Source of the DNA: an uncultured Eubacteriales bacterium
GTDB taxonomy: Bacteria > Acidobacteriota > Aminicenantia > Aminicenantales > UBA8522
NCBI GenBank assembly: GCA_964445305.1
Contig: CAYUKK010000022.1
Span: 3,174 to 67,173, forward strand
Direction of reading: 5' to 3'
Length of the DNA: 64,000 nucleotides
Shown one piece after another: positions 1,147 to 50,632 of the stretch; within the stretch, counting starts at the first letter, position 1, and each line of letters begins with the position of its first letter. The position numbers and the translations under genes were made by a program. The notes below the pieces were generated by a model. The model saw nothing but the letters and a program-made list of their open reading frames with translations. It was not told the origin of the DNA and searched no databases.

Positions 1147-3558
1147 ATGAAAAGACAACCTGCGATCTTCCGTTCACGACTCTTTCTTTTTTGCCTTTTT
1201 CTTCTCAGCCTGACTTCTTTCCTCTTCTCCCAACAGCCCAAAAAGCCAGCCCGGATCCTGTCGACACCTCCGGAGGTGAGGCTGGAAGGATTCGCCAACC
1301 ACCTGGAGATGGAAAAGGCATCGCCCTTCAAGGACCTCAAGTGGCAATTCCTGGGTCCGACCAACGTGAGTGGCCGCTGCACAGACGTGGCCGTTCTCAC
1401 TCCAAAGGGCAAGAGCTACACTATCTATGTAGCTACCGCTTCGGGGGGCGTCTGGAAAACAGAGAATGAGGGAACGACATGGGAGCCCATCTTCGACCAG
1501 GAACTCTCCACGTCCATCGGCGACATCGCCGTTGCTCCTTCCGACCCCAACATCCTCTGGGTCGGCACGGGCGAGGCGAACATCTTCCGGAGCTCCCACC
1601 CCGGGTGCGGAATCTATAAGTCGACTGACGCCGGGAAGACGTGGCAGCATGCCGGCTTGACCGACACGAACACGATCGCCCGCATCGTCATCCATCCGAA
1701 GAACCCCGACGTGGTTTACGTGGCGGCCTCCGGCCACGAATGGACCTTCAACCCGGAGCGCGGGGTTTATAAGACCACGGACGGCGGGAAGACATGGGCC
1801 AAGATTCTCTACATCAACGAGCAGACCGGAGCGATCGACCTGGTCATGGACCCGACCAACCCCGATGTCCTCTATGCGGCCACCTGGCAGAGGGTCAGGA
1901 AAAAATGGAATGACCCCCGCAACGAGCCCCAGTACACAGGGAGCGGCATATGGAAGACGACCGACGGTGGAGCGACTTGGGACCCGATCAACAACGGCCT
2001 TCCCGAGCCCCGCTTCCGCGGCCGTATTGGCCTCGATATCTGTCTCTCCAAGCCCAATGTCCTCTACGCCTTTGTCGATAATTATGAAGTCGCCCGCGAG
2101 GCCGAGCCTGGCCGTTTCGATTCCTACGGCCGGCCTGCCCAGGCCGTTATCAAGGGAGCGACGGTTTACCGCTCTGACGACGCCGGCGAGAGCTGGCGGC
2201 TCGCCGCGCCCATAACCAACGAAATGAAACCCTACCTGGAGCGGCATTCGGGCACTTATGGCTGGGTCTTCGGGCAGATCCGCGTCGACCCCAACGACGA
2301 AAACAAAATCTTCATCCTGGGTGTGCCGATGAGTGTGTCCACGGACGGCGGCAAAAGCTTCCGCAGGGTGCCCAATATGTATCATGTCGACAATCACGGG
2401 CTCTGGATTGACCCGGATAATTCCAGCTACATCGTCAATGTCAACGACGGCGGCATCGAAATTTCCTATGACGGGGGCAAGACGTGGCGAAATTTCAGGA
2501 ACAACCTGCCCGTCTGCCAGTTCTTTAACCTCAATTACGACATGGACACTCCCTTCCGCGTCTATGGCTCGATGCAGGACCACGGAAGCTACCGGGCTGT
2601 CGTCGACCTTAGCCGGGGCCGTAACGCCATCCCCACGCAGGAATTCGAGAGGGCGCCGGGTGGGGAAGGCTCCCATCACGCCATCGACCCGACCAACCCG
2701 AACATCGTCTATTCCTGTGGCTTCTACGGCAACTTGTCCCGGACCGATTTGAGCAAGACGGGGCCCGAGCGCTCGAAGCTCATCGTGCCCCGCGTTTACC
2801 CTGACGAGCCGCCGCTCCGCGGCCAATGGCTGGCCCACTTCATCCTTTCGCCCCACAACCCGAACATCATCTACCACGGCATGCAGTATCTCTTCCGCTC
2901 TACTGACCGAGGCGACACCTGGGAGCGGATCAGCCCGGACCTGAGCTACTTCACGCCGACTGAGCAGGGCGATATCCCCTACCACACGATTACCGCCATC
3001 GCCGAATCTCCGCTAAAAGCCGGGCTCATCTATGTCGGGACGGATTGCGGCCGGGTGAGCGTGACCAGGGACGGCGGAAAGACCTGGCAGGAGATAACCC
3101 GTGGCCTCCCCTACCAGAAGTGGGTCTCCCGGATCGTCGCCTCCCAGTATGACATGGCCACCGTCTACCTCACTCAGCACGGCCGGGCTGATGACGATTT
3201 CGCTCCCTACATCTGGAAATCGACGGATTTCGGCAAGACGTGGACGAGCATCTCCGCCGGAATTCCTCTGGGGCCGGTCAACGTCATCAGGGAAGACCCG
3301 GTCGATAGAAACATCCTTTATGTGGGCACGGACCTTGGTGTTTACGTGAGCAAAGACGGGGCCAAGACTTGGCATGTCCTCGGCGCTAACCTTCCCTCCG
3401 CTTACGTCCATGACCTTATCATCCACCCGCGGGATAACATCATCGTCATCGCCACGCACGGCCGTGGCATGTGGGCCATGGACGCGGACCCAGTCAACGA
3501 GAAGCCCAAACGGCCGCGCCGCTTTTTCTTCGAGGATGAGCCTGCGACCGTCCGCTGA
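1147..3558 (+). CDS. secreted BNR/Asp-box repeat protein (sialidase/GH74/sortilin-like beta-propeller)
   Basis: AGGAGG 5 nt upstream of ATG. N-terminal signal peptide. At least 8 Asp-box repeats S/T-x-D-x-G-x-T-W (TDAGKTW, TDGGKTW x3, TDGGATW, YDGGKTW, TDFGKTW, KDGAKTW). Confidence 0.75.
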   Translation: MKRQPAIFRSRLFLFCLFLLSLTSFLFSQQPKKPARILSTPPEVRLEGFANHLEMEKASPFKDLKWQFLGPTNVSGRCTDVAVLTPKGKSYTIYVATASGGVWKTENEGTTWEPIFDQELSTSIGDIAVAPSDPNILWVGTGEANIFRSSHPGCGIYKSTDAGKTWQHAGLTDTNTIARIVIHPKNPDVVYVAASGHEWTFNPERGVYKTTDGGKTWAKILYINEQTGAIDLVMDPTNPDVLYAATWQRVRKKWNDPRNEPQYTGSGIWKTTDGGATWDPINNGLPEPRFRGRIGLDICLSKPNVLYAFVDNYEVAREAEPGRFDSYGRPAQAVIKGATVYRSDDAGESWRLAAPITNEMKPYLERHSGTYGWVFGQIRVDPNDENKIFILGVPMSVSTDGGKSFRRVPNMYHVDNHGLWIDPDNSSYIVNVNDGGIEISYDGGKTWRNFRNNLPVCQFFNLNYDMDTPFRVYGSMQDHGSYRAVVDLSRGRNAIPTQEFERAPGGEGSHHAIDPTNPNIVYSCGFYGNLSRTDLSKTGPERSKLIVPRVYPDEPPLRGQWLAHFILSPHNPNIIYHGMQYLFRSTDRGDTWERISPDLSYFTPTEQGDIPYHTITAIAESPLKAGLIYVGTDCGRVSVTRDGGKTWQEITRGLPYQKWVSRIVASQYDMATVYLTQHGRADDDFAPYIWKSTDFGKTWTSISAGIPLGPVNVIREDPVDRNILYVGTDLGVYVSKDGAKTWHVLGANLPSAYVHDLIIHPRDNIIVIATHGRGMWAMDADPVNEKPKRPRRFFFEDEPATVR

Positions 3559-3963
3559 AGGAAATCGACTTCAACCAAGAAGCCTTCTTGGTCACTCGGT
3601 TCTCAGGCGAGGCTACGGCCCATCCGGGGCAATCCTTGGGAGGCAGCGCTTGATGCTTTCCATCGGGTTGGCGGCCGTTTCGTGCTCAAAATTGGAGCAC
3701 GTGGTACCGCCCCTAGTTTCGCAGACCTCAAAGATTACTGGCAGGAAGTTCCCTGTGTCGAGCTGCTTAGCCACACCTCGCTCCGTATGATCAAAGAAAA
3801 TTTCTCAGCGAGGCGGAATGGTCCACCTTGCTGAATCGGGGCCCTTTTAACCATTTGGGCAGCTCCCCCGTCCGTTCCTCTGAGCTTTGACTCTCTCTCG
3901 TGGCCTGTGGTATTTTTACCGCGAAACATGAACCGATTTTACAACGCCGAAAGGTCATACTCC

Positions 3964-4792: not shown

Positions 4793-6829
4793 TTAGTACT
4801 CCGAAGAAAAGGCAATCCAGGGAAAGGATGAAATCCTCAGCCGGGCGCAACCCATCGGAATCAAGGTTACATCTTCGACAGGCTGCGGCGAATTGATGGG
4901 GCTCTGCGGGAGCTTTCCGACCATCCGTCCTTCCGCCTTCCATTGAGGGAGGCGCTTCGCCTTGGCCTTGAGGACAATCGGCGCCCGCTCCGGCTCAAAC
5001 GGCTGATAGGCAGGCGCCTCGTGTTTCACTATCTCCACCGAAAGCTCCGGCCTTTCGGGGTCAAGGACCAGGCCATAATTCCACGGGCTTATGGGGAGAA
5101 TTTCATAAGCTGGCCAATCGTCGGTTCCGCCGTAGCGGTTCCATTCTTCGGCAATCTTGAGGGAGAACCAGAGCGGACCCCGCCTGACCGAAACGGCGTT
5201 TCCTGTTTTCGGCCATTTTTTGACGCGGATTTTAGGAAAAAATTCCAGCCTCACCTGGTCGCCGTTTTTCCATTGCCGCGCCAGGACTGCATAATGACCT
5301 GGACGCAGCTCCGCCTCCTGTTTCCGACCGTTGACTGAGATAGCCGCCTCCTCCGCCCAATCAGGGAGCCTCAGATAAAGAGGAAATTCGGCGGCCGATT
5401 CCGTCCAGATGGTGAAATCGATGACATCGCCGAAAGGATACCAGGTGTCTTCCGAAATCCGAACCTCTTGTCCATTTCCCGCTTTGGCCCTGACCTCGGA
5501 AGGAGCATAGAGCACGGCGGCTAATCCGTTGTCCGGGGTGGCAAGCCAGAGATGCTCGGCAAAATAGGGCCAGCCAAAGGCAACGTTGTGCTGGCAGCAG
5601 CGGTAAGACCAGGGGTCATAGGAGACAAGCGTGCCCTCGTTCTGGAAATCGTGCTCGGCTGAGCTGTCGCAGGAGATTAGGTTCGGCGCCGTCAGATAAT
5701 GGAGAGCCCGCAGGTCTGGAGTCATCGCCGCCGGAAGCGAATTAAAGGCAATCTCCTCGCAGCGGTCAGCGTAGCGAGTATTGCCCGTGATTTTCAACAG
5801 CGACTCGTGGCTGTGCATGAACTCGACCATCGAGCAGGTTTCGGCGGCGTAGCGCGGGTCGGTGTGTCCGGGACGGATGTTCTCGTCGGCTCCGAACATG
5901 CCGCCCGGTTGCTGCCCGTACTCGCCCATGAGGAGGCGGTAATTCTTTTCAACGATCTCAAGGTACTTCGGGTCCCTGGCCTGCTGGAAATAAACGCCGG
6001 GGTAGCGAATCCCCATGGTGATGTTGACGCCGTGGTAAAACGAGCTCACTTCCCAATTCCTGTCCCTTTCCGGGCTGATGATATCACTTTCCCAGTCCGC
6101 TGTCCGTTCGTAGATCCGGCGGCCGAGGTCGAGGAGAAACCGCTCACCGGTCCGGTTGTAAAGCCAGTAAACGCTTTCCAGGTTTTCCCCACCGCGCAAT
6201 TTCTGCCAGCTTCCTGGAAGGAGGTCGTCAACAGGAAGGTTCCACTCAAACCGAAAATACTTGGCCATGAACGGGATGACCCGCTCATCTCCGGTCGCTT
6301 CGTAAAGGCTCTGGAGACAGGCAAGGACAAGCATGTTCGGCCACAGGTCCCGATTTTGACGGTTCTCCGGTGGGCCAAAATACCCGTCTTCCTGCTGGCT
6401 GCGGAAGACGATGTCCAGCCACTTTCTGGCGGTCGAAATAATCTCGGCGTCTTTGAGGATGTAGCCCAGGTCGCCATAGCCCTTAAGCCAGTAAGGCATC
6501 TCTTCCCAGCCGCGGCCTTTGAGCGTGATCCATCCGGAGTCCTCTTTCAAAAATCGGCTCAACTCCGGCAGATGTCCCGTTAAGCCGTCTCTCATGAGCT
6601 GGAGCTGACTGAGGAGCCAGCCCTTCGGCGCGATGCTGCCGATGGGAAGCTTCACCAGCGGGCTCGGGGCGAGCGGAGCCCGATTGGACACATAGAAGCG
6701 GTTGACGGCCAGCGTCGGCGGAGACTTAACGACCCTGACCTCATTCTTCATCGGCTCCTTCCCCTTACTCCTGGCCAGGCCAAGAATCAAAAAAAGGAAA
6801 AGGGAGATGGCCAAGACGTTTTTGATCAT
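4793..6829 (-). CDS. glycoside hydrolase family 127-like (beta-L-arabinofuranosidase HypBA1/DUF1680 family)
   Basis: E-T-C (AETCSMVEF) and C-C (SYRCCQHN) motifs match the Zn/catalytic Cys ligands of GH127. Signal peptide MIKNVLAISLFLFLILGLA. GGAGAAAG RBS before the ATG at 6829; the ORF extends to 6868. Confidence 0.7.
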   Translation of the reverse strand: MIKNVLAISLFLFLILGLARSKGKEPMKNEVRVVKSPPTLAVNRFYVSNRAPLAPSPLVKLPIGSIAPKGWLLSQLQLMRDGLTGHLPELSRFLKEDSGWITLKGRGWEEMPYWLKGYGDLGYILKDAEIISTARKWLDIVFRSQQEDGYFGPPENRQNRDLWPNMLVLACLQSLYEATGDERVIPFMAKYFRFEWNLPVDDLLPGSWQKLRGGENLESVYWLYNRTGERFLLDLGRRIYERTADWESDIISPERDRNWEVSSFYHGVNITMGIRYPGVYFQQARDPKYLEIVEKNYRLLMGEYGQQPGGMFGADENIRPGHTDPRYAAETCSMVEFMHSHESLLKITGNTRYADRCEEIAFNSLPAAMTPDLRALHYLTAPNLISCDSSAEHDFQNEGTLVSYDPWSYRCCQHNVAFGWPYFAEHLWLATPDNGLAAVLYAPSEVRAKAGNGQEVRISEDTWYPFGDVIDFTIWTESAAEFPLYLRLPDWAEEAAISVNGRKQEAELRPGHYAVLARQWKNGDQVRLEFFPKIRVKKWPKTGNAVSVRRGPLWFSLKIAEEWNRYGGTDDWPAYEILPISPWNYGLVLDPERPELSVEIVKHEAPAYQPFEPERAPIVLKAKAKRLPQWKAEGRMVGKLPQSPINSPQPVEDVTLIPMGCARLRISSFPWIAFSSEY

Positions 6830-6903
6830 CTTTCTTTCTCCTTGCTCAAAAGAAAGATACATTTCCACATCCGCTCCTCAAATCATTTCCGATAACTTCG
6901 GCC

Positions 6904-9186: not shown

Positions 9187-9799
9187 CTTCCCTCCTCAGT
9201 CCATCTATGCTTTTAGCCGCCGCTTCCTTCCTCATGGCGACTTTGACTCTCCTGCCACTCCTCTGCCCCGACAAGAGGAATGATCCAGCATAGGCCGCGG
9301 CGACTTTTTCGAAAGCGGCAATCATGAGCTCAACATGCCTCTCCGTGTAAACGGGGTGAGTGAAAAAGGAAATGGTCCGGTCGCTCAGCCAGTGAGCAGT
9401 TGGGCAACGGACGGCCGAATAATCGACCCGACGCGCCGGCAGATTCCAGGAGGCAAACCTTTCAGGCTCAGCCAGTCCGATGGCCGACTGGACTTCGGTC
9501 ATCCGATAGTTAAACCCGACACGAGTATGGATGTGCATCAGCTTGGATTCAAGCTCGAGAAGGTTAAGTCTTTTCTGCACGTCATAACCATGGTCCCGGA
9601 ACGACCGGCAGCGCCAGGCAAGGTCCTCGTCATCGGTGATGACAGCGCCTCCTTCGCCGGCCGTCGTAAAATGCTTGCTCTGGCAAAAGCTGCCGGGGAC
9701 TGGGGATAACCTCTTCCGACCGCAACCAAACCCTTCCCTGGCAAGGCGGCTTTCCGCGATTCCACCAAACCCGACAATGGCGTACCGAATGGCCCTCAT
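9164..9799 (-). pseudogene. truncated DegT/DnrJ/EryC1 aminotransferase (C-terminal half only), apparently fused to a Gfo/Idh/MocA-type N-terminus
   Basis: Residues ~20-190 match the DegT C-terminal half (SFCQSKHFTTAGEGGAVITDD PLP-lysine motif; GFNYRMTEVQSAIGL). The ~150 N-terminal DegT residues are missing. The first 20 aa (MRAIRYAIVGFGGIAESRLA) look like a Gfo/Idh/MocA Rossmann N-terminus. The 3' end reads through into the PIG-L gene. In-frame stops lie immediately upstream of the ATG. Confidence 0.5.
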
Positions 9800-9915
9800 A
9801 GGACTCTCTCAGTCTTACCCAGCCGCACCGAAAAGCGCGACCAGATTCCCAAGTTTATTCAAGCTGGCGAGATGATGTCAAACCCGGGTTGCCTCATGAG
9901 AAAATGTACCCAATG

Positions 9916-10251
9916 GGTCCCGAAATTGCCGATCAAAGCACCCGACGGGTCCTCTCGTGGTTCACCCCCGGCCAGGCTCGGAGTTGGGATTGCGAAGCCC
10001 GCTCGTTTCCCCAGCGAGGAAACTCGCTCCGACGCAGCCTTCGCTCTTCTCTCGCTTGGCTCGAAAAACCATGCCCGCTCAGGCTTCGACGGGCTTTCTC
10101 ACCCCAGCCCCTCGCCTGTTTCCCCCAATTCACTAAGGCGAATTAAAGGGGCCTAGATCAAACATCGGGAGAGTGCATGTGGAGGCTCGGGGTTGGGATT
10201 GCGAAGCACGCTCGGGTCGGCGGGCCCCCGAACCACGCCACCCCTCGGGTG
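9916..10251 (+). repeat. structured non-coding repeat, copy 1 (left inverted repeat)
   Basis: Intergenic. Reverse-complement matches 29695-30003 at roughly 93% by manual alignment (about 20 mismatches over ~310 nt plus one 26-nt indel at 10211-10236). Contains a ~31-bp internal direct sub-repeat (9969-10001 and 10180-10210), a GAAA-tetraloop hairpin AGCGAG-GAAA-CTCGCT (10012-10027) and near-palindromes ACCCGNCGGGT at both ends (9939-9949, 10239-10249). Confidence 0.7.
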
Positions 10252-28968: not shown

Positions 28969-29514
28969 ATGATCCTCGTCCTGACCGGTCCGGTTCATTC
29001 GGGAAAGACGAGCTTTCTTCGTCAAGTGATTGCCCGCCTGCGGAAACAAAACGTTGCCTTCGACGGCTACTTGAGCTTTGCTGTCATAAGAGAGGGACGG
29101 AACATAGGTTACGACCTCTTTGACTTGACGACTGAAGAGGCCACACCTTTTTTGCGGTGCGAAGGCGAGAAAGGCTGGCCAAGGGTTGGCCGCTATTTTT
29201 TTGTTCCTGAAGGGCTCGAGAAAGCGCGGCAAAAAATCGTCGCATGTTCTCCTCGTACCTTCCTCATTGTCGATGAAATTGGGCCGATGGAGGTTAGGGG
29301 TGGCGGAGTTTGGCCGGCTTTTTCCTCATGGCTAAAAAAAGCTGGCCGAGGTTGTCTGCTCGTCGTTCGACGGTCCATTCTCGGCGACTTCCTTCGTCGA
29401 GTTGAGCCGAGTCGAGTTGAAGTTATTGACATTGGCGATAAACAAGCCTCTCTCAAGATTGAAAGAAGACTCCGTGCTTCAAGCGAGGGGAAAAGGCGAG
29501 GCTCTAAAGAATAA
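28969..29514 (+). CDS. small P-loop NTPase (THEP1/DUF2478-like)
   Basis: Walker A ILVLTGPVHSGKTSF. Walker B FLIVDEIGPME. 181 aa. Confidence 0.6.
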   Translation: MILVLTGPVHSGKTSFLRQVIARLRKQNVAFDGYLSFAVIREGRNIGYDLFDLTTEEATPFLRCEGEKGWPRVGRYFFVPEGLEKARQKIVACSPRTFLIVDEIGPMEVRGGGVWPAFSSWLKKAGRGCLLVVRRSILGDFLRRVEPSRVEVIDIGDKQASLKIERRLRASSEGKRRGSKE

Positions 29515-29694: not shown

Positions 29695-30003
29695 GCACCC
29701 CAGGGGTGGCGGGCTTCGCCATCCCAACCCCGAGCCTCCACACGCACTCTCCCGATGTTGGATATAAGGCCCTTTAATCTGCTTTAGTGAATTGGGGGGA
29801 ACAGGCGAGGGGTTTGGGTGAGAAAGCCCGTCGAAGCCTGAGCGGGCAGGGTTTCTCGAGCGAAGCGAGAGAAGAGCGAAGGCTGAGTCGGAGCGAGTTT
29901 CCTCGCTGGGGAAACGAGCGGGCTTCGCCATCCCAACCCCGAGCCTGGCCGGGGGTGAACCACGACAGGACCCGTCGGGTGCTTTGATCGGCAATTTCGG
30001 GAC
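29695..30003 (-). repeat. structured non-coding repeat, copy 2 (right inverted repeat)
   Basis: Reverse complement aligns with 9916-10251 (see copy 1). Same sub-repeats (29706-29740, 29916-29946 by eye) and the same GAAA-tetraloop hairpin. Lacks the 26-nt insertion present in copy 1. Intergenic between the NTPase and AOR genes. Confidence 0.7.
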
Positions 30004-30015
30004 AATCCGTTCTTC

Positions 30016-30044
30016 TTGTCAGAAAAGAATGGATTTGATATGCT
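30016..30044 (+). promoter_or_regulatory. candidate sigma70 promoter for the AOR operon
   Basis: TTGTCA (30016-30021), 17 nt spacer, TATGCT (30039-30044), 27 nt upstream of the AOR ATG. Directly abuts repeat copy 2. Confidence 0.35.
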
Positions 30045-30071: not shown

Positions 30072-31901
30072 ATGAGCGATCTTCCTTCTGGCTATCACGG
30101 CAAAATCCTGGAGGTTGACCTTTCCAAGGGTCAGGTGGAAGCCTTCCCTCTCGACCCGGAAGACTTGGCACGGTATCTGGGAGGCCGCGGTCTTGGCGCC
30201 CGAATTCTCTATGACCGAATTGACCCGACCTGTGATCCCCTGGGTCCAGACAACGCGATTGTGATCGCCACTTCACCCCTCATCGGTACGAACGCGCCGA
30301 CAGCCGGTCGCGGCCACATGGTCTTCAAGTCCCCTCTCACTGGCGGGATCGGAAGCTCCAACTGCGGCGGAACATGGGCCCCGGCGTTCAAGGCGACGGG
30401 CAGCGATGTTCTCGTCATCAAAGGCAGAGCTTCGGCGCCTGTTTTCCTCGATATCACTCCTGAAAAGGTAGAAATTCTGCCTGCTTCCCATCTCTGGGGC
30501 ATGGATGTTCATCAGACGACGGACATTCTGACCTCCGGGGAGGCACCGCGCCAGAGTCGGGTCCTTTGCATCGGGCCAGCCGGAGAGAAAAGAGTTCGTT
30601 TCGCTACTGTCATGAACGACCGGAACCGAGCTTATGGCCGGAGCGGTTCGGGCGCTGTCTGGGGAAGCAAGAACCTTAAGGCCATTCGAGTCGCCGGTCG
30701 GGTGAAAATCGATATCCGGGATAAAGATCAATTCCGGTCCGGAGCCGAACAAGCCTACTACCTCCTGAAACAAGCGCCTGCGACGAAGCGCCTGCTCAAG
30801 GACCTTGGAACGATCGGACTCATCGAGCTCATCAACCTCATCCAGATGCTTCCCCACCGCAATTTTCAAGACAACGTTCACCGGGATGAAGATGTGGACA
30901 AGATTTCGGGGGAGACCTTTTCCAAACGGTTGTTGGAAAGAGCTGGCGGTTGCTATCTGTGTCCAATCGCCTGCCAACGGCACACCCGGGTTGGCCAGAA
31001 AAAGGGGGAGGGGCCAGAGTACGAGACAACGGTGATGTTAGGTCCAGACTGTCATATTTACGATTTGGAAGCCATCACCCTGGCCAACTATGCCTGTAAC
31101 GAGCTGGGCATCGATACCATTTCTTTTGGTGGCACCCTGGCTTGTGCCATGGAGCTCTTCGAGCGAGGCCTCCTTACCGAAAGGGACACAGAAGGCCTCG
31201 ACCTGCGATTTGGCAACGCCCAAATTCTCGTGGAGATGGTCCGCCGCACCGCCCTGCGACAGGGGATCGGCGATCTTCTGGCTGAGGGCTCCTTTCGGTT
31301 GGCCAGCGCTTTCTCCCATCCCGAGTTTTCGATGACCATCAAGAAGCAGGAAATTCCGGCTTACGAGCCGCGTGCTTCCTTCACTCAGGCTCTCGGTTAC
31401 ATGACCTCGCCCACGGGGGCCTGCCATCTCAAGGGTGGCTATGCTGTTTCCCTGGCTTTCTTTGGCGGGCCCAGGGAGATCCCCCGCTTCAGCTTGCTCC
31501 AGTCTCCCCTGGCCATCCGCAACATGCACAACTTGGGGATCGTGCAGGACACTCTGGGCATCTGCCGCTTCACGGGATATGCGTTTTCGACAGACCCCTG
31601 GGCGAGGATGGCCAGCGGCGTGACGGGCCTTGATTTTTCTACGGCTGAGCTTGAGCGGATGGCCAACCGGGTGGCGGCCCTGGAGAGGCTTTTCAACCTG
31701 GAAGCGGGGCTGGGAGCTGAGGATGATACTTTGCCGGAAAGGTTCAGCCTCGAGCCGATCGTTGTCGCGGGCGAGGAGCGGGTGATTTCTCGAGACATCA
31801 TCCGACGCCTCCGGTCGGATTACTACCGGGCCCGTGGCTGGGACGAAGAAGGGAGACCGCCAGCCGCCCTCCTCGAATCCCTCGGCATCAGGAGGCGGTA
31901 G
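30072..31901 (+). CDS. tungsten-type aldehyde:ferredoxin oxidoreductase (AOR family)
   Basis: AFOR N-domain (YHGKILEVDLSKG.., TSPLIGT..PTAGRGHMVFKSPLTGG). CYLCPIAC [4Fe-4S] motif. GIDTISFGG. 609 aa. Confidence 0.9.
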   Translation: MSDLPSGYHGKILEVDLSKGQVEAFPLDPEDLARYLGGRGLGARILYDRIDPTCDPLGPDNAIVIATSPLIGTNAPTAGRGHMVFKSPLTGGIGSSNCGGTWAPAFKATGSDVLVIKGRASAPVFLDITPEKVEILPASHLWGMDVHQTTDILTSGEAPRQSRVLCIGPAGEKRVRFATVMNDRNRAYGRSGSGAVWGSKNLKAIRVAGRVKIDIRDKDQFRSGAEQAYYLLKQAPATKRLLKDLGTIGLIELINLIQMLPHRNFQDNVHRDEDVDKISGETFSKRLLERAGGCYLCPIACQRHTRVGQKKGEGPEYETTVMLGPDCHIYDLEAITLANYACNELGIDTISFGGTLACAMELFERGLLTERDTEGLDLRFGNAQILVEMVRRTALRQGIGDLLAEGSFRLASAFSHPEFSMTIKKQEIPAYEPRASFTQALGYMTSPTGACHLKGGYAVSLAFFGGPREIPRFSLLQSPLAIRNMHNLGIVQDTLGICRFTGYAFSTDPWARMASGVTGLDFSTAELERMANRVAALERLFNLEAGLGAEDDTLPERFSLEPIVVAGEERVISRDIIRRLRSDYYRARGWDEEGRPPAALLESLGIRRR

Positions 31902-31903
31902 GC

Positions 31904-33223
31904 GTGGGCAAAAAGACATGGAAAGCGAGCGCAGACATCCTCCGGTTGTTCCAATCCATAGGCCGGGCCTCCCTCCTCTATGATGTCCAGGACAGTCACA
32001 GCGGGAACATGGCCATTCGCTACCGTGACGAGGCCGGCCATGAATGGATCGTCATCACCGCCACGGGCTCGCAGAAAGGGGATCTCGATGCGAGCCAGAT
32101 TTGTTTTCTCTCGCCGACCGAAACGGATTTTGGCTATTATAAAGCCTCTTCGGAAACGGATATCCATGCCCGCATCCTCAACCTGGAAGGAGTCGCCGCC
32201 TCCATCCACGCTCATACCAAAGACCTGACAATTGTTACCCTCGACGATGCCCCCAAGCCGAGCCAACCGCCGCCTTTCGTCCCTGTCGATCCCCTCGGCC
32301 ATTTTTATCTGGGTGAGGTGCCCGTCGACTGGGTCGAAGTTCCAAGCGGCTCAGCCGAGATGACCAGAATCATCCCGGAAAGGCTGGCCCGACATCCCGC
32401 CGCGGTCATCCAGACGCATGGCACTTTTGCTCGGGGAAGGACGTTGCCTGAGGCTTTCTTCCTGGCATCCATTGCCAACAATTCCGGCTATGTCGTTCGC
32501 CTCCTCCACCGCCTGAAGGTGGATGTCGAGGCGTTGCGCCAGAAAGTTCTTAGCGAGCCCGAAACGATGTTCGCCCATCCTCCGCCTGCCTATACTATCG
32601 ACGATGATCACGTTTGTGAATTTGCTGACGAGAAAGAGATTCTTCAGGAATTCCGGAAGACAGGAGCGAGGATTTTTGAATCCCGGCTTTCGCCCTTCCA
32701 TACCGGTTCGATCTCGGTTCGGGGGGTCGAAAGGATGCTTTACGCTCCCAAGGCTTCCATGCCAAGGGAAGTCGGCGGCCCACTGCTCAATGTGCCCCTC
32801 GAAATCGAGGAAGAGGACACAGCCGAGCTCAGACTCCACAAACAGATTTACGCCGCCAGCGATTTTCAGACGATTATCCACTGTTATGTTCCGGAGGCAG
32901 AGGCCATGGCCCATTTCCGGCCACCCGGGCAAGAAGAACCGACGAACCGGATTGTTCCCCTTGATGCCGAGGGAAGCTTTCTTTACCTCGTCATTCCTGT
33001 CGTCCCGCCAAGAACTCAGGTAGGGGAGCTTGTCCGCCTTCTCCATGATTATAAGATTGTCGTCGTCCGAGGAGGGGGAGCCTGGGCCGTGGGTAGTCAA
33101 TCTCTCTCCGAAGCCCTGCATCATCCCTCCTCGCTCCGGGAGATCTGCTTGTACCGCATCGGTGCCTTCGAGCTGGGCCTCGACTTGAGGCGTCTTGAAC
33201 CGGAAAAAGCCAAGCGATGGTAA
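31904..33223 (+). CDS. tandem class II aldolase/adducin-domain protein
   Basis: Two repeats of the class II aldolase N-terminal pattern (SGNMAIRYRDEAGHEWIVITATGS and HTGSISVRGVERMLYAPKAS). H-x-H (SIHAHT) in domain 1. Translationally coupled to AOR and lutC (2-nt gap, 7-nt overlap). Confidence 0.55.
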   Translation: MGKKTWKASADILRLFQSIGRASLLYDVQDSHSGNMAIRYRDEAGHEWIVITATGSQKGDLDASQICFLSPTETDFGYYKASSETDIHARILNLEGVAASIHAHTKDLTIVTLDDAPKPSQPPPFVPVDPLGHFYLGEVPVDWVEVPSGSAEMTRIIPERLARHPAAVIQTHGTFARGRTLPEAFFLASIANNSGYVVRLLHRLKVDVEALRQKVLSEPETMFAHPPPAYTIDDDHVCEFADEKEILQEFRKTGARIFESRLSPFHTGSISVRGVERMLYAPKASMPREVGGPLLNVPLEIEEEDTAELRLHKQIYAASDFQTIIHCYVPEAEAMAHFRPPGQEEPTNRIVPLDAEGSFLYLVIPVVPPRTQVGELVRLLHDYKIVVVRGGGAWAVGSQSLSEALHHPSSLREICLYRIGAFELGLDLRRLEPEKAKRW

Positions 33224-33783
33224 GAGTCCGCCTCATCGAAAGGTTCATCTCCTCCGCCCAGGCTTCGGGAGCAGAAGTGGTGCGGCTGACAGGAACCGAC
33301 GAGGCCCTCGGCTTTGTTTTGAGCTTCCTTGAAGAAAGCGGCCGGCCATCCCTCGTTGTTTCTCCTGAAGTCCTCGATCAACTTGCCGGCGCCGCCAGCC
33401 TGGCCTCCCCGCTTCCGCAGACAAGAGAGGAATGGATGAGGACTGAAGTCAGCCTCGTTCGGGCCGACTATGGCCTGGCGCGAACGGGTACTCTCGTCCA
33501 CCTCGACCGGAGCGAGGAGGAACGTCTGAGCTGGACGCTTGCCTCCGCATGCCTTTGTCTTTTGAGCACAGAGAGCATTGTTGACGGGGCGGAGGAGCTG
33601 GCACCCGTTTTGGCGGCTCATCTTGGCCGCCGCGACCTTTTATCTCCCGCTGTCTCCTTGGTGACTGGACCGAGCCGGACGGCTGACATCGAAGGCCAGC
33701 TCATCTGCGGCGTCCATGGACCCAAGCGGTTGATTATCCTTCTCCTTAACGCCTCGACTTCACCGACAGATGAAAACGCTTGA
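33217..33783 (+). CDS. lutC: LutC-like (LUD domain) lactate utilisation protein C
   Basis: LUD-domain pattern ..DYGLARTGTLVHL...SLVTGPSRTADIEGQLICGVHGPKRLIILLL. 188 aa. Confidence 0.7.
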   Translation: MVRVRLIERFISSAQASGAEVVRLTGTDEALGFVLSFLEESGRPSLVVSPEVLDQLAGAASLASPLPQTREEWMRTEVSLVRADYGLARTGTLVHLDRSEEERLSWTLASACLCLLSTESIVDGAEELAPVLAAHLGRRDLLSPAVSLVTGPSRTADIEGQLICGVHGPKRLIILLLNASTSPTDENA

Positions 33784-35857
33784 CCCTCACCTTAAATCCG
33801 TTCTTAGCCATTTCGCCGAGAATTATTTACTGAAAAGAAAAGCAGCCCTGACGGACCTGGATTTTGAAGCGGCTCGGGAGGAAGTGGCCAACGTAAAGGA
33901 TCGAACTCTCCAGGAGCTTGACCGATGGCTGGAGGTTTTTGAGGCGAAGGTTGGCGAGCGGGGCGGCAAGGTCTATCGCGCTCGCGGCATTGCCGAGGCA
34001 AACCGATTCGTCCTCCACATCATGAAAGAGAGCGGGGCGGATTATCTCGTCAAGAGCAAATCCATGGTCAGCGAGGAGACAGGGCTGAATGCGTTTCTCG
34101 AGAGCCAGGGGATCACGGTCAGGGAAACGGACTTGGGCGAGTGGATCATCCAGCTTCGGCGGGAGAAGCCTACCCACATGGTCATGCCGGCCATCCATCT
34201 TACCCGCGAGGAAGTGGCTGATGCTTTCTCCTGTTATTTAAAGAAAAACATTCCTCCCGACATTCCTACCCTCGTCGAGGTGGCTCGCCAGGAACTCCGC
34301 CGGGACATCTGCCGGGCGGGAGTCGGACTCCTGGGCGCTAACGCCCTCATCGCGGAAAGCGGCTGTGTTATGCTCGTGACGAACGAAGGAAACGGCCGCC
34401 TTGTCTCCCTCATCCCACCAGTAAGCATTGTCCTGGCCAGCGTGGAGAAAGTCTTGCCCACGATCCAGGACGCCCTCACGATTCTCAAGATCCTCCCCGT
34501 CAACGCCACCGGCCAGACTATCACGAGCTATGTCTCTTTTCTCACCCCTTCTTCTTCGAGGCCACTCCACATCATCCTTCTGGATAATCATCGGTCAGAG
34601 ATCCTGGCCGACCCCGTTTTCCGGACCATCCTCCGCTGCCTCAAGTGCTCAGCTTGCTTGAACGTTTGTCCGGTCTATCAGGCCCTCGGGGGCAAGGATT
34701 ACGGAGCTATCTATATGGGCGGCATCGGCACGCTTCTTACCGCCTGGATGGATGGCCTCCGCAAGTCCCGTCGCCTCGCCGACTTGTGCCTGGGCTGCCA
34801 TCGCTGCGAAGTTTTCTGCGCGGCGAAAATTCCTATCGCCGACCTGATCATCGCCCTTCGAGAGCGTGTCAACCAGGGCTTGGGCAAGCCTTTCTGGAAA
34901 CGGATCCTTTTTGATAGCGGCATGGCCAAGGCTCATCGCTGGAGAAAAATTCTGGCCACCCTGAGCGCCGCGCGTCCCCTTGTGGCTCGAAAAGAAGGAT
35001 TTGCGCGCCGTCTGCCCCTGGCCCTCCGGAAGTACGATCAACATCGAGCGCTCCCCGCGCCGGCCCGGCCTCCGTTGTCGCGGCTTGTTAAAAGAAAGGA
35101 GACTCGCCCGACCATCGACACTCCCAAAGCTCGGGTCGTCCTCTTCACTGGCTGCCTGGTTGAGTATTTCTATCCAGAAATTGGAGAGGCCGCGCTTCGC
35201 GTTCTGGCCAGGCTTGGCCAGGAGGCTCGGCCGAGTGAGCCGGCATGCTGCGGCTTTCCGGCCTTCAACAGCGGTTGCCGCGATGCGGCGGCCAGAGCCA
35301 TGCGCTCAGCTCTGGTCGACCTTGAAGAAGCGGAGCGGATTCTGACTCTCTGTCCCACCTGCACGGCGATGCTCAAACATCATGGTCCCAAAATCCTGTC
35401 CGCCGAGATAGCGCAACGCGTGGCCGAGCGCGTTTCACCCATCAGCGCTTATCTTTTTGAGCTTTATGGGGACAGAATCCAAACCCTCTTCCCTCGGCGA
35501 AAGCCATCGATCAAAGTCACCTACCACGATTCCTGCCATCACAAGCATGTGCTCGGAGCTTCGAGGGGCTCGAGGTTGGCCCTGGAGCTAGCCCTGGGCC
35601 ATAAGGTTCAGGAAATGGACAGCCCGGACGCCTGCTGCGGTTTTGGGGGAATTTTTTCGGTCGTCCAGCCCGAGGTTTCCGCCTCCCTTCTCGAGGACAA
35701 GCTCAATGCTCTGGAGCGGAGTGGGGCAGAAATGGTGGCCATGGATTGTCCGGGATGTTTGCTTCAGATTCGTGGCGGCTTGCGGAGAAGAAAGTCGAGT
35801 CGGCGAGCCCACCACACGATCGAGATCATCGACGCCCGCCTGGCCGGAAAACTTTGA
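33770..35857 (+). CDS. lutB: fused LutB-LutA type iron-sulfur oxidoreductase (LUD domain + 2x[4Fe-4S] + CCG domains)
   Basis: LUD domain (GANALIAESGCVMLVTNEGNGRL). CLKCSACLNVCP and CLGCHRCEVFC ferredoxin motifs. C-terminal CCG repeats (TGCLVEYF..ACCGFPAFNSGC; DSCHHKH..ACCGFGG). Confidence 0.8.
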   Translation: MKTLDPHLKSVLSHFAENYLLKRKAALTDLDFEAAREEVANVKDRTLQELDRWLEVFEAKVGERGGKVYRARGIAEANRFVLHIMKESGADYLVKSKSMVSEETGLNAFLESQGITVRETDLGEWIIQLRREKPTHMVMPAIHLTREEVADAFSCYLKKNIPPDIPTLVEVARQELRRDICRAGVGLLGANALIAESGCVMLVTNEGNGRLVSLIPPVSIVLASVEKVLPTIQDALTILKILPVNATGQTITSYVSFLTPSSSRPLHIILLDNHRSEILADPVFRTILRCLKCSACLNVCPVYQALGGKDYGAIYMGGIGTLLTAWMDGLRKSRRLADLCLGCHRCEVFCAAKIPIADLIIALRERVNQGLGKPFWKRILFDSGMAKAHRWRKILATLSAARPLVARKEGFARRLPLALRKYDQHRALPAPARPPLSRLVKRKETRPTIDTPKARVVLFTGCLVEYFYPEIGEAALRVLARLGQEARPSEPACCGFPAFNSGCRDAAARAMRSALVDLEEAERILTLCPTCTAMLKHHGPKILSAEIAQRVAERVSPISAYLFELYGDRIQTLFPRRKPSIKVTYHDSCHHKHVLGASRGSRLALELALGHKVQEMDSPDACCGFGGIFSVVQPEVSASLLEDKLNALERSGAEMVAMDCPGCLLQIRGGLRRRKSSRRAHHTIEIIDARLAGKL

Positions 35858-35919: not shown

Positions 35920-36432
35920 CTAGATATATTTTTTTATATGAGAGGCGAGGAAACGGGCGACTTCCTCCACCGCAAATGGCCAGGCATAAATGATTTTTTT
36001 CCCGGGACAGAGGGCTCGGCCGCGTTCGATGGCGGCGGCAATTTCTACTTCTGAGTGCTCGCCGCCCCGTGTCATCATCGGAGTGACGACGACGATCGTC
36101 TCGGCTTCCAAGCTCGCCGCCAGGCCAATGGCCTCGTCAATCGAGGGGGCGCAGAATTCATTGAAGCCGAGGATGACCTCCAGGCCTGTTTCCTGGCGAA
36201 GCTGCTGGGCGAGCTCGCCGGAGCCAGCATAGAAAGGGTCGTTCTCGGCGTTTCGGGGCCAGGTTCTCATTTTCTTTTCCAGCTCGAGGTAGCGAAGACG
36301 AAGCGATTCGTCGGTATCCGCGTGGCCGTGAGCCACCCGGCCATGAAGAGCCATGAATTCCTGGAGTTCGGAGCGGGGGAAATCGAGCGGCGGAGCGCCG
36401 TGCATGGCCAGGACAAGGACAGCTCGCTTCAT
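35920..36432 (-). CDS. CbiX/SirB-like small chelatase-fold protein
   Basis: VLVLAMHGAPPLDFP and ..TPMMTRGGEHSEVEI resemble the CbiX metal-binding His motifs. 170 aa. Moderate support. Confidence 0.45.
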   Translation of the reverse strand: MKRAVLVLAMHGAPPLDFPRSELQEFMALHGRVAHGHADTDESLRLRYLELEKKMRTWPRNAENDPFYAGSGELAQQLRQETGLEVILGFNEFCAPSIDEAIGLAASLEAETIVVVTPMMTRGGEHSEVEIAAAIERGRALCPGKKIIYAWPFAVEEVARFLASHIKKYI

Positions 36433-36444
36433 CGTCTTTCCTCC

Positions 36445-37491
36445 TCAGCGATGGGGCTCGATGATGACCTTGAGGGATTCACCGGCTTTTTCCATCAGCT
36501 CAAAACCGAGGCCGATGGCCTCAAGAGGAAGCCGGTGGGTGATCATGTCCACGACTTCGACCCGCTTATTTCTTAGTATTTCGACCGTTTCAGTAAGGTC
36601 AGCGCCGTCGGCCGCGTAAGAAGTGAGAAGGGTGATGTCGTTCCGCCAGAACTCGTTGATGGGGAGGACGAGCCTGTCGTCAGGGTGGGGGACAGCAAAG
36701 AAAAGGATGGCCCCGCCCCGATCCACGCACTGAAGGGCCTGCTCGGCGGCCGAGAGCGCGCCGGCGCAGATGATGACCCGGTCGGCCAGCCGGCCATCGT
36801 TGACGGCTTTCAGGCGATCGGGGGTGAGTTCGCTGGCTTGGAAAGCAAAATCCGCCCCGAATTTCCCGGCCATAGCCAAGCGATAGGGCGAAATGTCGGT
36901 GGCGATGATTCTTCCCGCCCCCATGGCTGCGGCCAGCTTGATGTGGAGAATCCCTGACACGCCGCTCCCGAGGACGAGAATTGTCTGGCCGGGCTTGACC
37001 CGGGCCACCTTCTGGCCGCGCCAGGCGCAGGCCAGCGGCTCGACGAAAGTTCCGGCCTCGAAGGAGAGCTCATCGGGGAGGAGGAAAGTCCCGCGGTCGA
37101 CGTTGATCCAGGGGACGCGGATGTACTCGGCGAAACCGCCCGGGTCGAAATTCGTCCGGTGGAGCGTGGAGCAGGCCGTGGTGTGGCCACTCAAGCAGTA
37201 GTGGCAGGTGAGGCAGGGAACGTGGTGGGTGACCGTGACCCGTTCGCCCACCTTAAACTTTTCAACCTTGCGGCCAGCCTCGACGACGACGCCAGCGATC
37301 TCGTGGCCGAGGACGCGAGGGGCCTGCTTGACCCGGTACCATTCAAGGACGTCGCTACCGCAAATGCTCGAGGCCATGACTTGGACGAGAAGCTCGTCCT
37401 CGCCAATGGACGGCACCGGCCGCTCTTCGAGGCGGATGTCCCGGTTATGGTAATAAACCGCCACGCGCATCGTCCCTTTTTCGGGGCTCAA
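36445..37491 (-). CDS. Zn-dependent medium-chain alcohol/polyol dehydrogenase (threonine/sorbitol-DH-like)
   Basis: Catalytic Zn ligands (SICGSD...GHEIAG). Structural Zn CLTCHYCLSGHTTAC. Rossmann GSGVSGIL. 348 aa. Confidence 0.85.
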   Translation of the reverse strand: MSPEKGTMRVAVYYHNRDIRLEERPVPSIGEDELLVQVMASSICGSDVLEWYRVKQAPRVLGHEIAGVVVEAGRKVEKFKVGERVTVTHHVPCLTCHYCLSGHTTACSTLHRTNFDPGGFAEYIRVPWINVDRGTFLLPDELSFEAGTFVEPLACAWRGQKVARVKPGQTILVLGSGVSGILHIKLAAAMGAGRIIATDISPYRLAMAGKFGADFAFQASELTPDRLKAVNDGRLADRVIICAGALSAAEQALQCVDRGGAILFFAVPHPDDRLVLPINEFWRNDITLLTSYAADGADLTETVEILRNKRVEVVDMITHRLPLEAIGLGFELMEKAGESLKVIIEPHR

Positions 37492-37503
37492 GGCTTTATC
37501 CTC

Positions 37504-38301
37504 TTATTTCGCTTTTTCTTCAAGGAAAAGCGCGTAGGCTTCTTCGGGCGATTTGTTTTCGTGGACAACGCTCCGGACAGCTTTGATCATGGCCACTGGT
37601 GCTTCGGACTGAAAAATGTTCCGACCCATATCCACGCCGACAGCGCCGCAGCGCAGAGCCTTCGAAGCCAGCTCCAGCGCCTCCTTCTCCGGAGTTTTTT
37701 TACCACCAGCGATGACGACGGGCACGGGGCAAGTCTCGACCACGGTCTCGAAATCGTCGCAATAATAAGTCTTGACGAAGTGGGCGCCGAGCTCAGCGGC
37801 AATTCGGCACGCCAGGCTGAGATAGCGCGCATCGCGGACCATGTCCTTGCCCACGGCAGTCACGGCCAGCACGCCCAGCCCGTACCTTTGCGCTTCATTG
37901 ACGAGGCTGGCAAGGGAGAGGAGGGTTTCCTTTTCGTGGGGAGAGCCGATAAAAATGGAGAGAGCCACCGCCGCCGCGTTCAAGCGGAGCGCTTCCTCGA
38001 TCGAGGTGATGATTCCTTCGTTGGAGAGCTCGCTCAAGATGCTCGTCCCACCTGAGACGCGAAGGACAATGGGCACATCAACTTCGGGCGGCACCGAGGT
38101 TCGCAAAACACCCCGGGTGAGCATGAGGGAGTCGGCGTAAGGAAGGAGAGGCTCGATCGTCCGGCGCGGCACCTCCAGACCGCTCGTGGGCCCGAGGAAG
38201 TAGCCGTGGTCGACAGCCAGCATGACCGTCCTTCCGGTTTCCGGCTTGATGATCCGAGAAAGTCGGTTGCGAAGCCCCCAATCCATGGTTGCCTCCATCA
38301 T
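37504..38301 (-). CDS. DhnA-type class I aldolase (FbaB / ADH-synthase family)
   Basis: Archaeal-type class I aldolase pattern (..VMLAVDHGYFLGPTSGLE.., Schiff-base Lys region HFVKTYY). 265 aa. Immediately upstream of the Zn-ADH gene. Confidence 0.65.
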   Translation of the reverse strand: MMEATMDWGLRNRLSRIIKPETGRTVMLAVDHGYFLGPTSGLEVPRRTIEPLLPYADSLMLTRGVLRTSVPPEVDVPIVLRVSGGTSILSELSNEGIITSIEEALRLNAAAVALSIFIGSPHEKETLLSLASLVNEAQRYGLGVLAVTAVGKDMVRDARYLSLACRIAAELGAHFVKTYYCDDFETVVETCPVPVVIAGGKKTPEKEALELASKALRCGAVGVDMGRNIFQSEAPVAMIKAVRSVVHENKSPEEAYALFLEEKAK

Positions 38302-39255: not shown

Positions 39256-39371
39256 CTGCTACCTTGCTAGTTAATCAAATAGTCAGCGAGCAGGCGCCGG
39301 GGACGAACCGCGACATGACCCGTCGGGTATTTTTATCGGCCATCTCGGGAACATTCTTCCCGGCCTGCTTT

Positions 39372-50558: not shown

Positions 50559-50632
50559 GGCGGTGTAGCTCAGTTGGTTAGAGCATGCGGCTCATATCCG
50601 CAGTGTCGGGGGTTCAAATCCCTCCACCGCCA
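50559..50632 (+). tRNA. tRNA with CAU anticodon (elongator Met or lysidine-type Ile2)
   Basis: Manual cloverleaf: acceptor GGCGGTG/CACCGCC, D-arm GCTC-AGTTGGTTA-GAGC, anticodon stem TGCGG/CCGCA with loop CTCATAT (CAT), variable GTGTC, T-arm GGGGG-TTCAAAT-CCCTC, discriminator A. G1:C72 argues against initiator. No encoded CCA. Confidence 0.85.

Follow-up and report, generated by a model that had tools for sequence, protein, structure and literature searches.

An aldehyde:ferredoxin oxidoreductase paired with a tandem class II aldolase as the candidate lower half of an anaerobic L-rhamnose/L-fucose pathway

Which metabolic task is served by an operon in which a gene for an aldehyde:ferredoxin oxidoreductase (AOR) is followed by one for a doubled class II aldolase and by genes for lactate-oxidizing (Lut) proteins? 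The question is raised by positions 30,072–35,857 of a 64,000-nucleotide (nt) stretch of DNA, referred to below as the window, from an uncultured Eubacteriales bacterium placed by GTDB in Acidobacteriota (Aminicenantia; Aminicenantales; UBA8522; GenBank assembly GCA_964445305.1, contig CAYUKK010000022.1). The initial annotation read the four genes as a route from lactaldehyde to pyruvate, and comparative genomics supports this reading through the clade of the AOR, the active-site residues in the N-terminal half of the aldolase, and the deoxy-sugar genes found next to related gene pairs. Overall, the operon likely encodes the lower half of L-rhamnose and/or L-fucose breakdown by an anaerobic route that does not depend on NAD, with a probability that we put at roughly 0.7. 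The four genes, called as open reading frames (ORFs), and the putative expression signals accompanying them are as follows:

30016..30044, + strand: sigma-70-like promoter match (TTGTCA-17-TATGCT), 28 nt before the AOR start, a weak candidate
30072-31901, + strand: AOR gene, 609 amino acids (aa)
31890..31895, + strand: Shine–Dalgarno sequence of the aldolase gene, a perfect AGGAGG read from the sequence, 8 nt before the GTG and within the 3' end of the AOR gene
31904-33223, + strand: tandem class II aldolase gene, 439 aa, GTG start
33217-33783, + strand: LutC/LldG-like gene, 188 aa
33770-35857, + strand: LutB-LutA fusion gene, 695 aa

The genes are tightly coupled, as stated in the initial annotation: AOR and aldolase are separated by a 2-nt gap, aldolase and LutC overlap by 7 nt, and LutC and LutBA by 14 nt, the same four gene boundaries being obtained when genes were called independently on an ENA metagenome contig of 99.9% identity. 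The assignment of the products to an AOR, a tandem class II aldolase, LutC, and a fused LutB-LutA also agrees with their Pfam domains. In several other loci, the AOR–aldolase junction takes the form of an ATGA stop/start overlap. The promoter match is the sole one on the + strand of the region, with a match count not above the shuffle expectation; 3' of the operon, no convincing terminator was found, the counts being equal to the shuffle expectation, and upstream of the AOR the search for a molybdenum or tungsten cofactor (Moco/Tuco) riboswitch returned nothing at the gathering threshold or at E<=1.

The next step is to ask which part of this arrangement is kept in other genomes. Two sets of loci were compared: a close set of 79 genome loci with aldolases 58–86% identical to that of the window, and a distant set of 80 metagenome-contig loci, collected by a scan with an alignment of distant tandem relatives and encoding aldolases mostly 25–42% identical; the adjacency counts cover only the loci with enough upstream sequence. 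The AOR gene lies directly upstream of the aldolase gene, on the same strand, in 63 of the 68 informative close-family loci, and an AOR 35–50% identical to that of the window holds the same place in 41/49 informative distant loci. An adjacency recurring at this frequency is far more than chance would produce, and the two proteins have diverged in a correlated manner (r = 0.95 in the close set, r = 0.83 in the distant set). Hence, the conserved unit is the AOR plus the aldolase, not all four genes as in the unit proposed in the initial annotation: Lut genes stand beside the pair in only about a quarter of the loci.

Two candidate variants of the arrangement were rejected. A natural AOR–aldolase fusion was suggested by a 1058-aa ORF in locus L045, which turned out to be a frameshift artifact in a high-GC metagenome-assembled genome (MAG), the other long ORFs of this kind being out-of-frame extensions. 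A Mo-hydroxylase in place of the AOR was considered for two loci with a lone aldolase (L134, L143), but the upstream genes there encode a secretin and NTPase_1, i.e., they reproduce the synteny of the window. The NTPase_1 (THEP1-like) gene, located in the window at 28969-29514 (+) and in L134 at 5342-5869, precedes the pair or the lone aldolase in ~35 other loci as well; it usually follows a secretin gene and may reflect plain synteny.

What kind of enzyme is the AOR? It is a full-length family member by Pfam (AFOR_N, 253 bits, E 1e-75; AFOR_C, 401 bits, E 6e-120). Compared with solved structures, it scores 486 bits with 9mqx, 470 with 9g7j, and 468 with 1aor (three AORs, the last from Pyrococcus furiosus), versus 391 with the Aromatoleum AOR, 334 with Haloferax WOR, 269 with FOR, 203 with WOR5, and 187 with BamB; the archaeal GAPOR model (GAPOR_Arch) gives it just 62 bits. 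By these comparisons, it belongs to the AOR sensu stricto clade, closer to it than to FOR, WOR5, GAPOR, or BamB, and the GAPOR or FOR affiliation considered in the initial annotation was not found. The alignment to 1AOR retains the CxxCxxxC cluster motif as CYLCPIAC with the distal Cys in QDTLGIC, both pterin-binding Asp motifs (IDTIS is among the aligned motifs), and the catalytic residues, with Glu in EGPEYE and His in GACHLK (Glu313/His448 in P. furiosus numbering). Taken together with its genomic partner, it is proposed to be a tungsten-type L-lactaldehyde:ferredoxin/flavodoxin oxidoreductase. Generally, AORs are reversible enzymes with a broad substrate spectrum.

The P. furiosus AOR shares with the window protein the family, the cofactor-binding motifs, and the catalytic residues; still, it is tied to amino-acid-derived aldehydes, whereas the window AOR gene is paired with that of an aldehyde-producing aldolase. 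Another tungsten enzyme of the family, WOR1 from Eubacterium limosum, oxidizes lactaldehyde in vitro, and its role was interpreted as the detoxification of a number of aldehydes (Thorgersen et al. 2024, PMC11725836); it is a multisubunit, bifurcating enzyme, unlike the window AOR, which is encoded as a single-subunit gene.

Two kinds of small genes accompany the AOR in related loci. Upstream of it, a 93-aa MoaD/ThiS-like protein ending in GG is encoded in 11 loci (including L003, L004, L006, L007, L013 at 2190-2471, and L020); recognized by eye from its sequence, it would fit pterin cofactor synthesis. This gene is missing from the window, where a dispersed repeat holds its position. In four rha-type loci (L032, L035 at 9349-9840, L043, L051), a 160-aa flavodoxin gene directly follows that of the aldolase, its product being a candidate electron acceptor of the AOR.

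The aldolase consists of two halves:

31904..32548, + strand: N-terminal half, aa 1-215; all FucA catalytic and Zn residues kept; predicted competent Zn aldolase domain
32639..33223, + strand: C-terminal half, aa 246-439; same fold, degenerate metal/phosphate site; proposed pseudo-subunit

Pfam finds Aldolase_II (PF00596) in two matched stretches of this protein, and both halves were aligned to the Escherichia coli FucA and RhaD references, confirmed to be identical to 1FUA and 1GT7, respectively. In the N-half, N35, T52, G55, S82, and S83 correspond to the FucA phosphate-binding residues N29, T43, G44, S71, and S72, E84 to the catalytic base E73, and H102, H104, and H172 to the Zn ligands H92, H94, and H155. 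These functional residues are invariant or nearly so across 73 members of the family, an alignment of 62 sequences, and 22 tandem proteins (25–67% identity). In the C-half, the position of FucA H94 is occupied by Tyr, Phe, or Trp across the family (Tyr in the window protein), that of H155 by Gly391, and the Ser-Ser pair is gone, so that only H326 and E308 remain of the metal and catalytic set (two of the three Zn histidines lost). Thus, with respect to the His/Zn ligands, on which the initial annotation made the aldolase assignment depend, the N-half is intact (E84, H102, H104, H172), whereas the C-half is not.

At the level of protein families, the picture is less specific. The best NCBIfam match of the aldolase is the generic "aldolase" model PRK08660 (151 bits vs. 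a cut-off of 203); the FucA subfamily model gives 21.5 bits (cut-off 264), and RhaD gives no match. Other sub-threshold matches include MtnB (50 bits), ribulose-1-phosphate aldolase (39), and OtnC (36); in the searches for a RhaEW-type NCBIfam match and an adh_short domain, neither was found in this protein. By these scores, the aldolase is a member of the superfamily (PF00596) outside the FucA and RhaD families. The AlphaFold2 model is of high confidence (pLDDT 90.8, pTM 0.92), and Foldseek matches it to single-domain FucA-type aldolases, with TM-scores of ~0.8 when normalized to the target and <=0.39 when normalized to the query. No PDB chain in this search spans both halves; since each match covers one half, there seems to be no solved structure with the tandem architecture.

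The family of these ~440-aa proteins is known from metagenomes only, under the generic annotation "class II aldolase/adducin family protein"; according to cluster look-ups, most members come from Aminicenantes MAGs and some from Planctomycetota. When 1.84 billion cluster representatives were searched exhaustively, only 39 clusters reached E<=1e-30, among them full-length tandem relatives down to ~25–30% identity. If the substrate assignment is correct, the tandem aldolase would represent the third non-orthologous type of rhamnulose/fuculose-1-phosphate aldolase, after RhaD/FucA and RhaE.

The role of the degenerate half is a separate question. The C-half is better conserved than the N-half (mean top-residue frequency of 0.777 vs. 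0.737), and its P352-x-D354-x-E356-G loop and G392 are invariant down to 25% identity. The loop aligns to that bearing Tyr113 in FucA; in the FucA tetramer, this loop reaches into the active site of the neighboring subunit. This suggests, at about even odds, that there is one active site per polypeptide and that the C-half operates as a built-in pseudo-subunit completing the site of the N-half. The alternative is that, within the same pathway, the C-half represents a second catalytic or ligand-binding domain, e.g., isomerase- or epimerase-like, or harboring an allosteric or metal-binding site. Its high conservation would fit such a role, as would the set of residues invariant in the close family (E308, H312, H326, E331, D354, E356, H406, H407, R412, C415). 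Still, H326, H406, and H407 are not conserved in the distant tandem relatives, which keep invariant only P352, D354, E356, and G392 and, almost invariant, the G268-S269-x-S271 loop; the C-half has also lost two of its three metal histidines together with the phosphate serines, and the surviving invariant loop is the one aligned to the inter-subunit loop of FucA. A separate function of the C-half is, hence, quite unlikely.

Which substrate does the pair handle? The proposed cleavage of L-fuculose-1-phosphate or L-rhamnulose-1-phosphate by the aldolase is supported through the gene context. The rhaA gene is present in 15 close-set loci in convergent orientation (NCBIfam 644 bits vs. a cut-off of 572), 1.3–2.8 kb 3' of the pair in most of them and nearly 7 kb in one. 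A rhamnulokinase-like FGGY kinase occurs in 9 loci (496 bits vs. a cut-off of 528; the fuculokinase model gives 130), and a glycoside hydrolase family 78 (GH78) alpha-L-rhamnosidase in 6. Three of the rha-linked loci (L057, L065, L066) possess the aldolase without the AOR, and therefore it is the aldolase itself that is tied to the rhamnose genes. In the distant set, an FGGY kinase gene adjoins the pair in 14 loci, and bona fide fucI is found in 5; GH29 alpha-L-fucosidase genes are present in some loci. The most complete example is L147, where genes for GH29 alpha-L-fucosidase, AOR, tandem aldolase, FucI (1089 bits vs. a cut-off of 775), LutA, LutB (444.6 bits vs. a cut-off of 444.8), LutC, and FGGY kinase follow one another on one strand; its aldolase displays HSGN, STE, HAH, and HG in the N-half and PIDAE in the C-half. 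L152 resembles L147 from the AOR onward. Probing with E. coli RhaD and FucA revealed no second class II aldolase in any locus. The initial annotation suggested looking for fucose and rhamnose genes elsewhere; they are absent from the 64-kb window but present in the orthologous loci (rhaA in 15, rhaB-like in 9, GH78 in 6, fucI in 5).

The Lut genes, where present, accompany the pair in three architectures: LutC with fused LutBA, LutC and fused LutBA with an intervening Hcp gene, and split LutA-LutB-LutC. The first, with both genes directly 3' of the pair, is limited to the nearest relatives of the window. In the Saccharicenans-type loci, LutC comes next to the pair, followed by the hybrid-cluster protein, and the fused LutBA lies 3.5–4.4 kb downstream; this Hcp (hydroxylamine reductase, 858 bits) was recorded between LutC and LutBA in L026, L034, L036-L039, L041, L058, and L076.

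The breakdown of rhamnose and that of fucose converge only at dihydroxyacetone phosphate (DHAP) and L-lactaldehyde (see also PMC3870299). Since the pair is found in both rha and fuc contexts, together with lactate-oxidizing genes, it is best explained as an aldolase plus a lactaldehyde oxidase. The proposed sequence of events is as follows. The isomerase, kinase, and glycosidase steps would be encoded elsewhere in the genome, the corresponding genes lying beside the pair in related genomes. The aldolase would cleave L-rhamnulose-1-phosphate and/or L-fuculose-1-phosphate to DHAP and L-lactaldehyde at the intact Zn site of the N-half, the site being completed by the P-x-D-x-E-G loop of the C-half in the manner of a partner subunit. 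As suggested by the gene pairing and the chemistry of its family, the AOR would convert L-lactaldehyde to L-lactate, donating low-potential electrons to ferredoxin or flavodoxin. Finally, the LutC-like protein and the LutB-LutA fusion would oxidize L-lactate to pyruvate, as their homology to LutABC/LldGH suggests. Acid/aldehyde couples (~-0.58 V for acetate/acetaldehyde) are low enough to reduce ferredoxin, so the route would yield low-potential electrons where FucO would consume NADH.

The last step can be specified further. Pfam detects LUD_dom in the 188-aa protein (E 3e-25); in the 695-aa protein, it detects LUD_dom, a 4Fe-4S dicluster (Fer4_8), and two CCG domains, i.e., a LutB part followed by a LutA part. 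The NCBIfam model quin_L_LdhH ("L-lactate dehydrogenase (quinone) large subunit LdhH") matches residues 5-687 of 695 with 739.8 bits, and TIGR00273 (LutB/LldF) matches the N-terminal 380 residues with 336.6 bits vs. a cut-off of 444.8. The fusion protein is a close homolog of the LldGH type (LldH/LdhH), equivalog status not being granted, and the oxidation of L-lactate to pyruvate by the two proteins appears plausible by homology. In Desulfovibrio vulgaris, LldGH (DVU3032-3033) displays the same layout, in which the gene of the small LUD subunit precedes that of the LutB-LutA fusion, and these genes were reported to encode a functional L-lactate dehydrogenase (PMC6456213); they reside in the por-pta-ack lactate operon, whereas the window genes reside in an aldolase/AOR operon.

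The aldolase might act on another ketose-1-phosphate instead, e.g., 5-deoxyribulose-1-phosphate or 5-methylthioribulose-1-phosphate of the S-adenosylmethionine-salvage "DHAP shunt", or (D-)ribulose-1-phosphate. The AOR would then oxidize acetaldehyde, methylthioacetaldehyde, or glycolaldehyde, and the Lut genes of the window would be an unrelated lactate-utilization unit. The sub-threshold scores with MtnB, ribulose-1-phosphate aldolase, and OtnC listed above lean this way, as do a Foldseek match to the 5-deoxyribose-pathway aldolase 6btd and the lack of Lut genes in most loci; in addition, FucI enzymes are generally known to double as D-arabinose isomerases. However, no genes of the MtnA/MtnK/DrdI/DrdK type were seen among the recurrent neighbors, the recurrent sugar genes being rhaA, the rhaB-like kinase, GH78, fucI, and GH29; the Lut genes recur in three independent architectures and also inside the fucI-kinase clusters of L147 and L152. 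A substrate other than a 6-deoxyhexulose-1-phosphate is thus very unlikely. Finally, that the AOR works reductively (from lactate through lactaldehyde to 1,2-propanediol), or merely detoxifies aldehydes in general, lacking a substrate of its own and staying beside the aldolase through synteny, is most improbable despite the known reversibility and breadth of AORs, the interpretation of WOR1 as a multi-aldehyde detoxifier (PMC11725836), and the few aldolase loci without an AOR, since the adjacency is kept at 25–35% aldolase and 35–50% AOR identity in very different flanks, unlike drift-level synteny, the recurrent neighbors were found to include neither lactaldehyde reductase nor propanediol genes, the Lut genes consume lactate oxidatively, and the glycosidases point to catabolism.

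A number of observations weigh against the deoxy-sugar pathway as proposed. Some concern the enzymes. The aldolase is below every NCBIfam equivalog cut-off, and other enzymes of the class II aldolase superfamily, namely dehydratases, epimerases, and decarboxylases, share its Zn site; the role of pseudo-subunit proposed for the C-half comes from an alignment. The promiscuity of broad-spectrum AORs means that adjacency is no proof of substrate, and the LdhH score of the 695-aa protein is under the equivalog cut-off of 800. Others concern the loci. Lut genes stand beside the pair in only about a quarter of them, and among those with at least 3 kb of downstream sequence, rha or Lut genes (fuc counted separately) are present in 25/54 close and 11/38 distant loci; in a few (L057, L065, L066, L134, L143), the aldolase occurs without the AOR. 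The loci are also phylogenetically related, so the counts overstate their independence. With regard to the window itself, probe searches did not find rhaA, rhaB, fucI, GH78, or GH29 in its 64 kb, the sugar link of this organism rests on orthology at 58–68% identity, and the operon is flanked by housekeeping genes (type II secretion/pilus genes, secretin, NTPase, tryptophanyl-/tyrosyl-tRNA synthetase family, LigA, PFK, TilS, AsnB).

How does the proposed route relate to known systems? The pathways of E. coli (RhaA-RhaB-RhaD and FucI-FucK-FucA, then AldA or FucO) feature the same upper genes that lie beside the pair in related loci, the same chemistry yielding DHAP and L-lactaldehyde, and aldolases sharing the class II fold and the Zn/Glu catalytic set. 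The E. coli aldolases are built as homotetramers of 215- or 274-aa subunits, whereas that of the window is a 440-aa internal duplication with one half degenerate; in E. coli, lactaldehyde is oxidized by the NAD-dependent AldA or reduced by FucO, in contrast to the ferredoxin-linked tungstopterin AOR proposed here. Closer in logic is RhaEW, in which one fusion protein unites a class II aldolase and a lactaldehyde dehydrogenase dependent on NAD (Rodionova et al. 2013, PMC3870299), along with the lldD/lldEFG genes found in rhamnose (RhaR) regulons and extending the pathway to pyruvate (PMC3870299): there, too, an aldolase is coupled to lactaldehyde oxidation, followed by the oxidation of L-lactate to pyruvate, and both RhaEW and the window aldolase would be non-orthologous class II replacements of RhaD. 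The differences are that RhaEW carries a fused short-chain dehydrogenase/reductase (SDR) domain, RhaW, using NAD+, whereas the window has adjacent genes, no SDR domain, and ferredoxin or flavodoxin as the proposed acceptor, and that the host lineages of the tandem pair (Aminicenantes, Planctomycetota) are strict anaerobes, unlike those of the RhaEW system.

The toxicity of L-lactaldehyde under anoxia is also addressed by the bacterial microcompartments degrading fucose and rhamnose in Planctomycetes and Verrucomicrobia (context in PMC9324843). These disproportionate lactaldehyde via propanediol, whereas the window route would oxidize it to lactate; no microcompartment shell-protein genes were seen among the recurrent neighbors in the loci examined. 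AORs have been proposed from MAGs to detoxify rhamnose-derived lactaldehyde (Williams et al. 2022, PMC9324843), and genome-based reconstructions reported the lactaldehyde-consuming step of rhamnose or fucose catabolism as "missing" in Caldicellulosiruptor (PMC8579813) and in the "Zymogenia" Desulfobacterota (bioRxiv 10.1101/2021.03.22.436540). A literature search combining AOR with rhamnose and lactaldehyde, fuculose, or Aminicenantes returned no description of the gene pair or of the tandem aldolase. The novelty suggested in the initial annotation thus applies to the pair and the aldolase; the pathway logic was already known (PMC3870299, PMC9324843), and what would be new is a concrete candidate substrate for one clade of AORs, along with a third type of aldolase in 6-deoxy-sugar catabolism.

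The significance of such an assignment is that, for most bacterial members of the AOR family, no physiological substrate is known, and the deeply conserved pairing points to L-lactaldehyde for one clade, to which phosphorylated rhamnose/fucose breakdown involving an AOR would give a specific physiological substrate. An AOR-based step could fill the place of the missing lactaldehyde step in Aminicenantes, Planctomycetota, and other uncultured lineages. Compared with the reduction to propanediol, the sequence from lactaldehyde through lactate to pyruvate would provide low-potential electrons, usable for H2 or respiration, as well as additional ATP at the substrate level, and it alters the fermentation products to be predicted for abundant bacteria of sediments and digesters. 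If the pseudo-subunit reading is true, the tandem aldolase would exemplify a homo-oligomeric active site turned into an asymmetric pseudo-dimer. A further possibility, which we regard as unlikely, is that the AOR and the aldolase form a stoichiometric complex where the C-half docks the AOR or forms a tunnel, channeling L-lactaldehyde from the Zn site to the tungsten site. Such a complex, if it exists, would let 6-deoxy sugars be fermented without a compartment, as an alternative to bacterial microcompartments, and its AOR would be the first whose physiological substrate is both dedicated and channeled.

Several methyl-transfer genes were recorded near the pair. Between the aldolase and rhaA, genes for corrinoid-binding proteins (MtgC/MtbC-like) and MtaA/URO-D-like methyltransferases are located in L017, L019, L031, L057, and L066, and in L135 an MttB-superfamily methyltransferase gene (2259-3719) lies upstream of the AOR. 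A speculative role of the corrinoid genes would be the O-demethylation of methylated deoxy-sugars feeding the pathway.

The surroundings of the operon in the window comprise, among others, the following genes:

1147-3558, + strand: BNR/sortilin protein gene
4793-6868, - strand: GH127 gene
35920-36432, - strand: CbiX-like small protein
36445-37491, - strand: Zn-dependent alcohol dehydrogenase; best sub-threshold matches, threonine or scyllo-inosose dehydrogenase
37504-38301, - strand: DeoC-family LsrF-like protein; PRK08227, 423 bits vs. an equivalog cut-off of 297

The GH127 and BNR genes, mentioned in the initial annotation as nearby hydrolases, are indeed present, but they were rejected as deoxy-sugar evidence: they lie >23 kb off, GH127 is an arabinofuranosidase family, and between these genes and the operon there is a dispersed repeat at which a near-identical public contig departs from the window. 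The three genes at 35920-38301 (-) form a convergent trio 3' of the operon, and those for the Zn-dependent alcohol dehydrogenase and the LsrF-like protein also stand beside the AOR–aldolase pair in the nearest relatives (L004, L005, L010, L022, L054, L079). Since LsrF-type enzymes carry out the thiolytic cleavage of a phosphorylated diketone to DHAP and acetyl-CoA, the LsrF-like protein could conceivably provide another route to DHAP, starting from a modified sugar.

The dispersed repeat is 295 nt long and is situated directly upstream of the AOR start (29709-30003, +), with an inverted copy at 9917-10211 and a partial one near 39296-39350; the arms are 93% complementary and 19.5 kb apart. It holds a perfect 29-nt direct repeat, with one copy at its 5' end (29709-29737) and the other ~210 nt on (29918-29946). 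A core of ~140 nt recurs at 72–84% identity between genes in the Aminicenantes loci L014, L018, L007, L047, and L012. The repeat has no Rfam match, and a structured RNA is not supported (fold z-score 0.08); it is probably a lineage-specific element resembling miniature inverted-repeat transposable elements (MITE) or repetitive extragenic palindromes (REP). The ENA contig k141_207573 (L082) is collinear with the window only from 9913 on, exactly at the inverted copy of the repeat; to the left of it, the contig encodes multihaem cytochromes, and the window encodes the GH127 and BNR/sortilin proteins. The divergence at 9913 reflects either a rearrangement between strains or a chimeric join that the repeat caused in one of the assemblies. 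Apart from a single tRNA gene at 50559-50632 (+), nothing in the window exceeds the Rfam gathering threshold.

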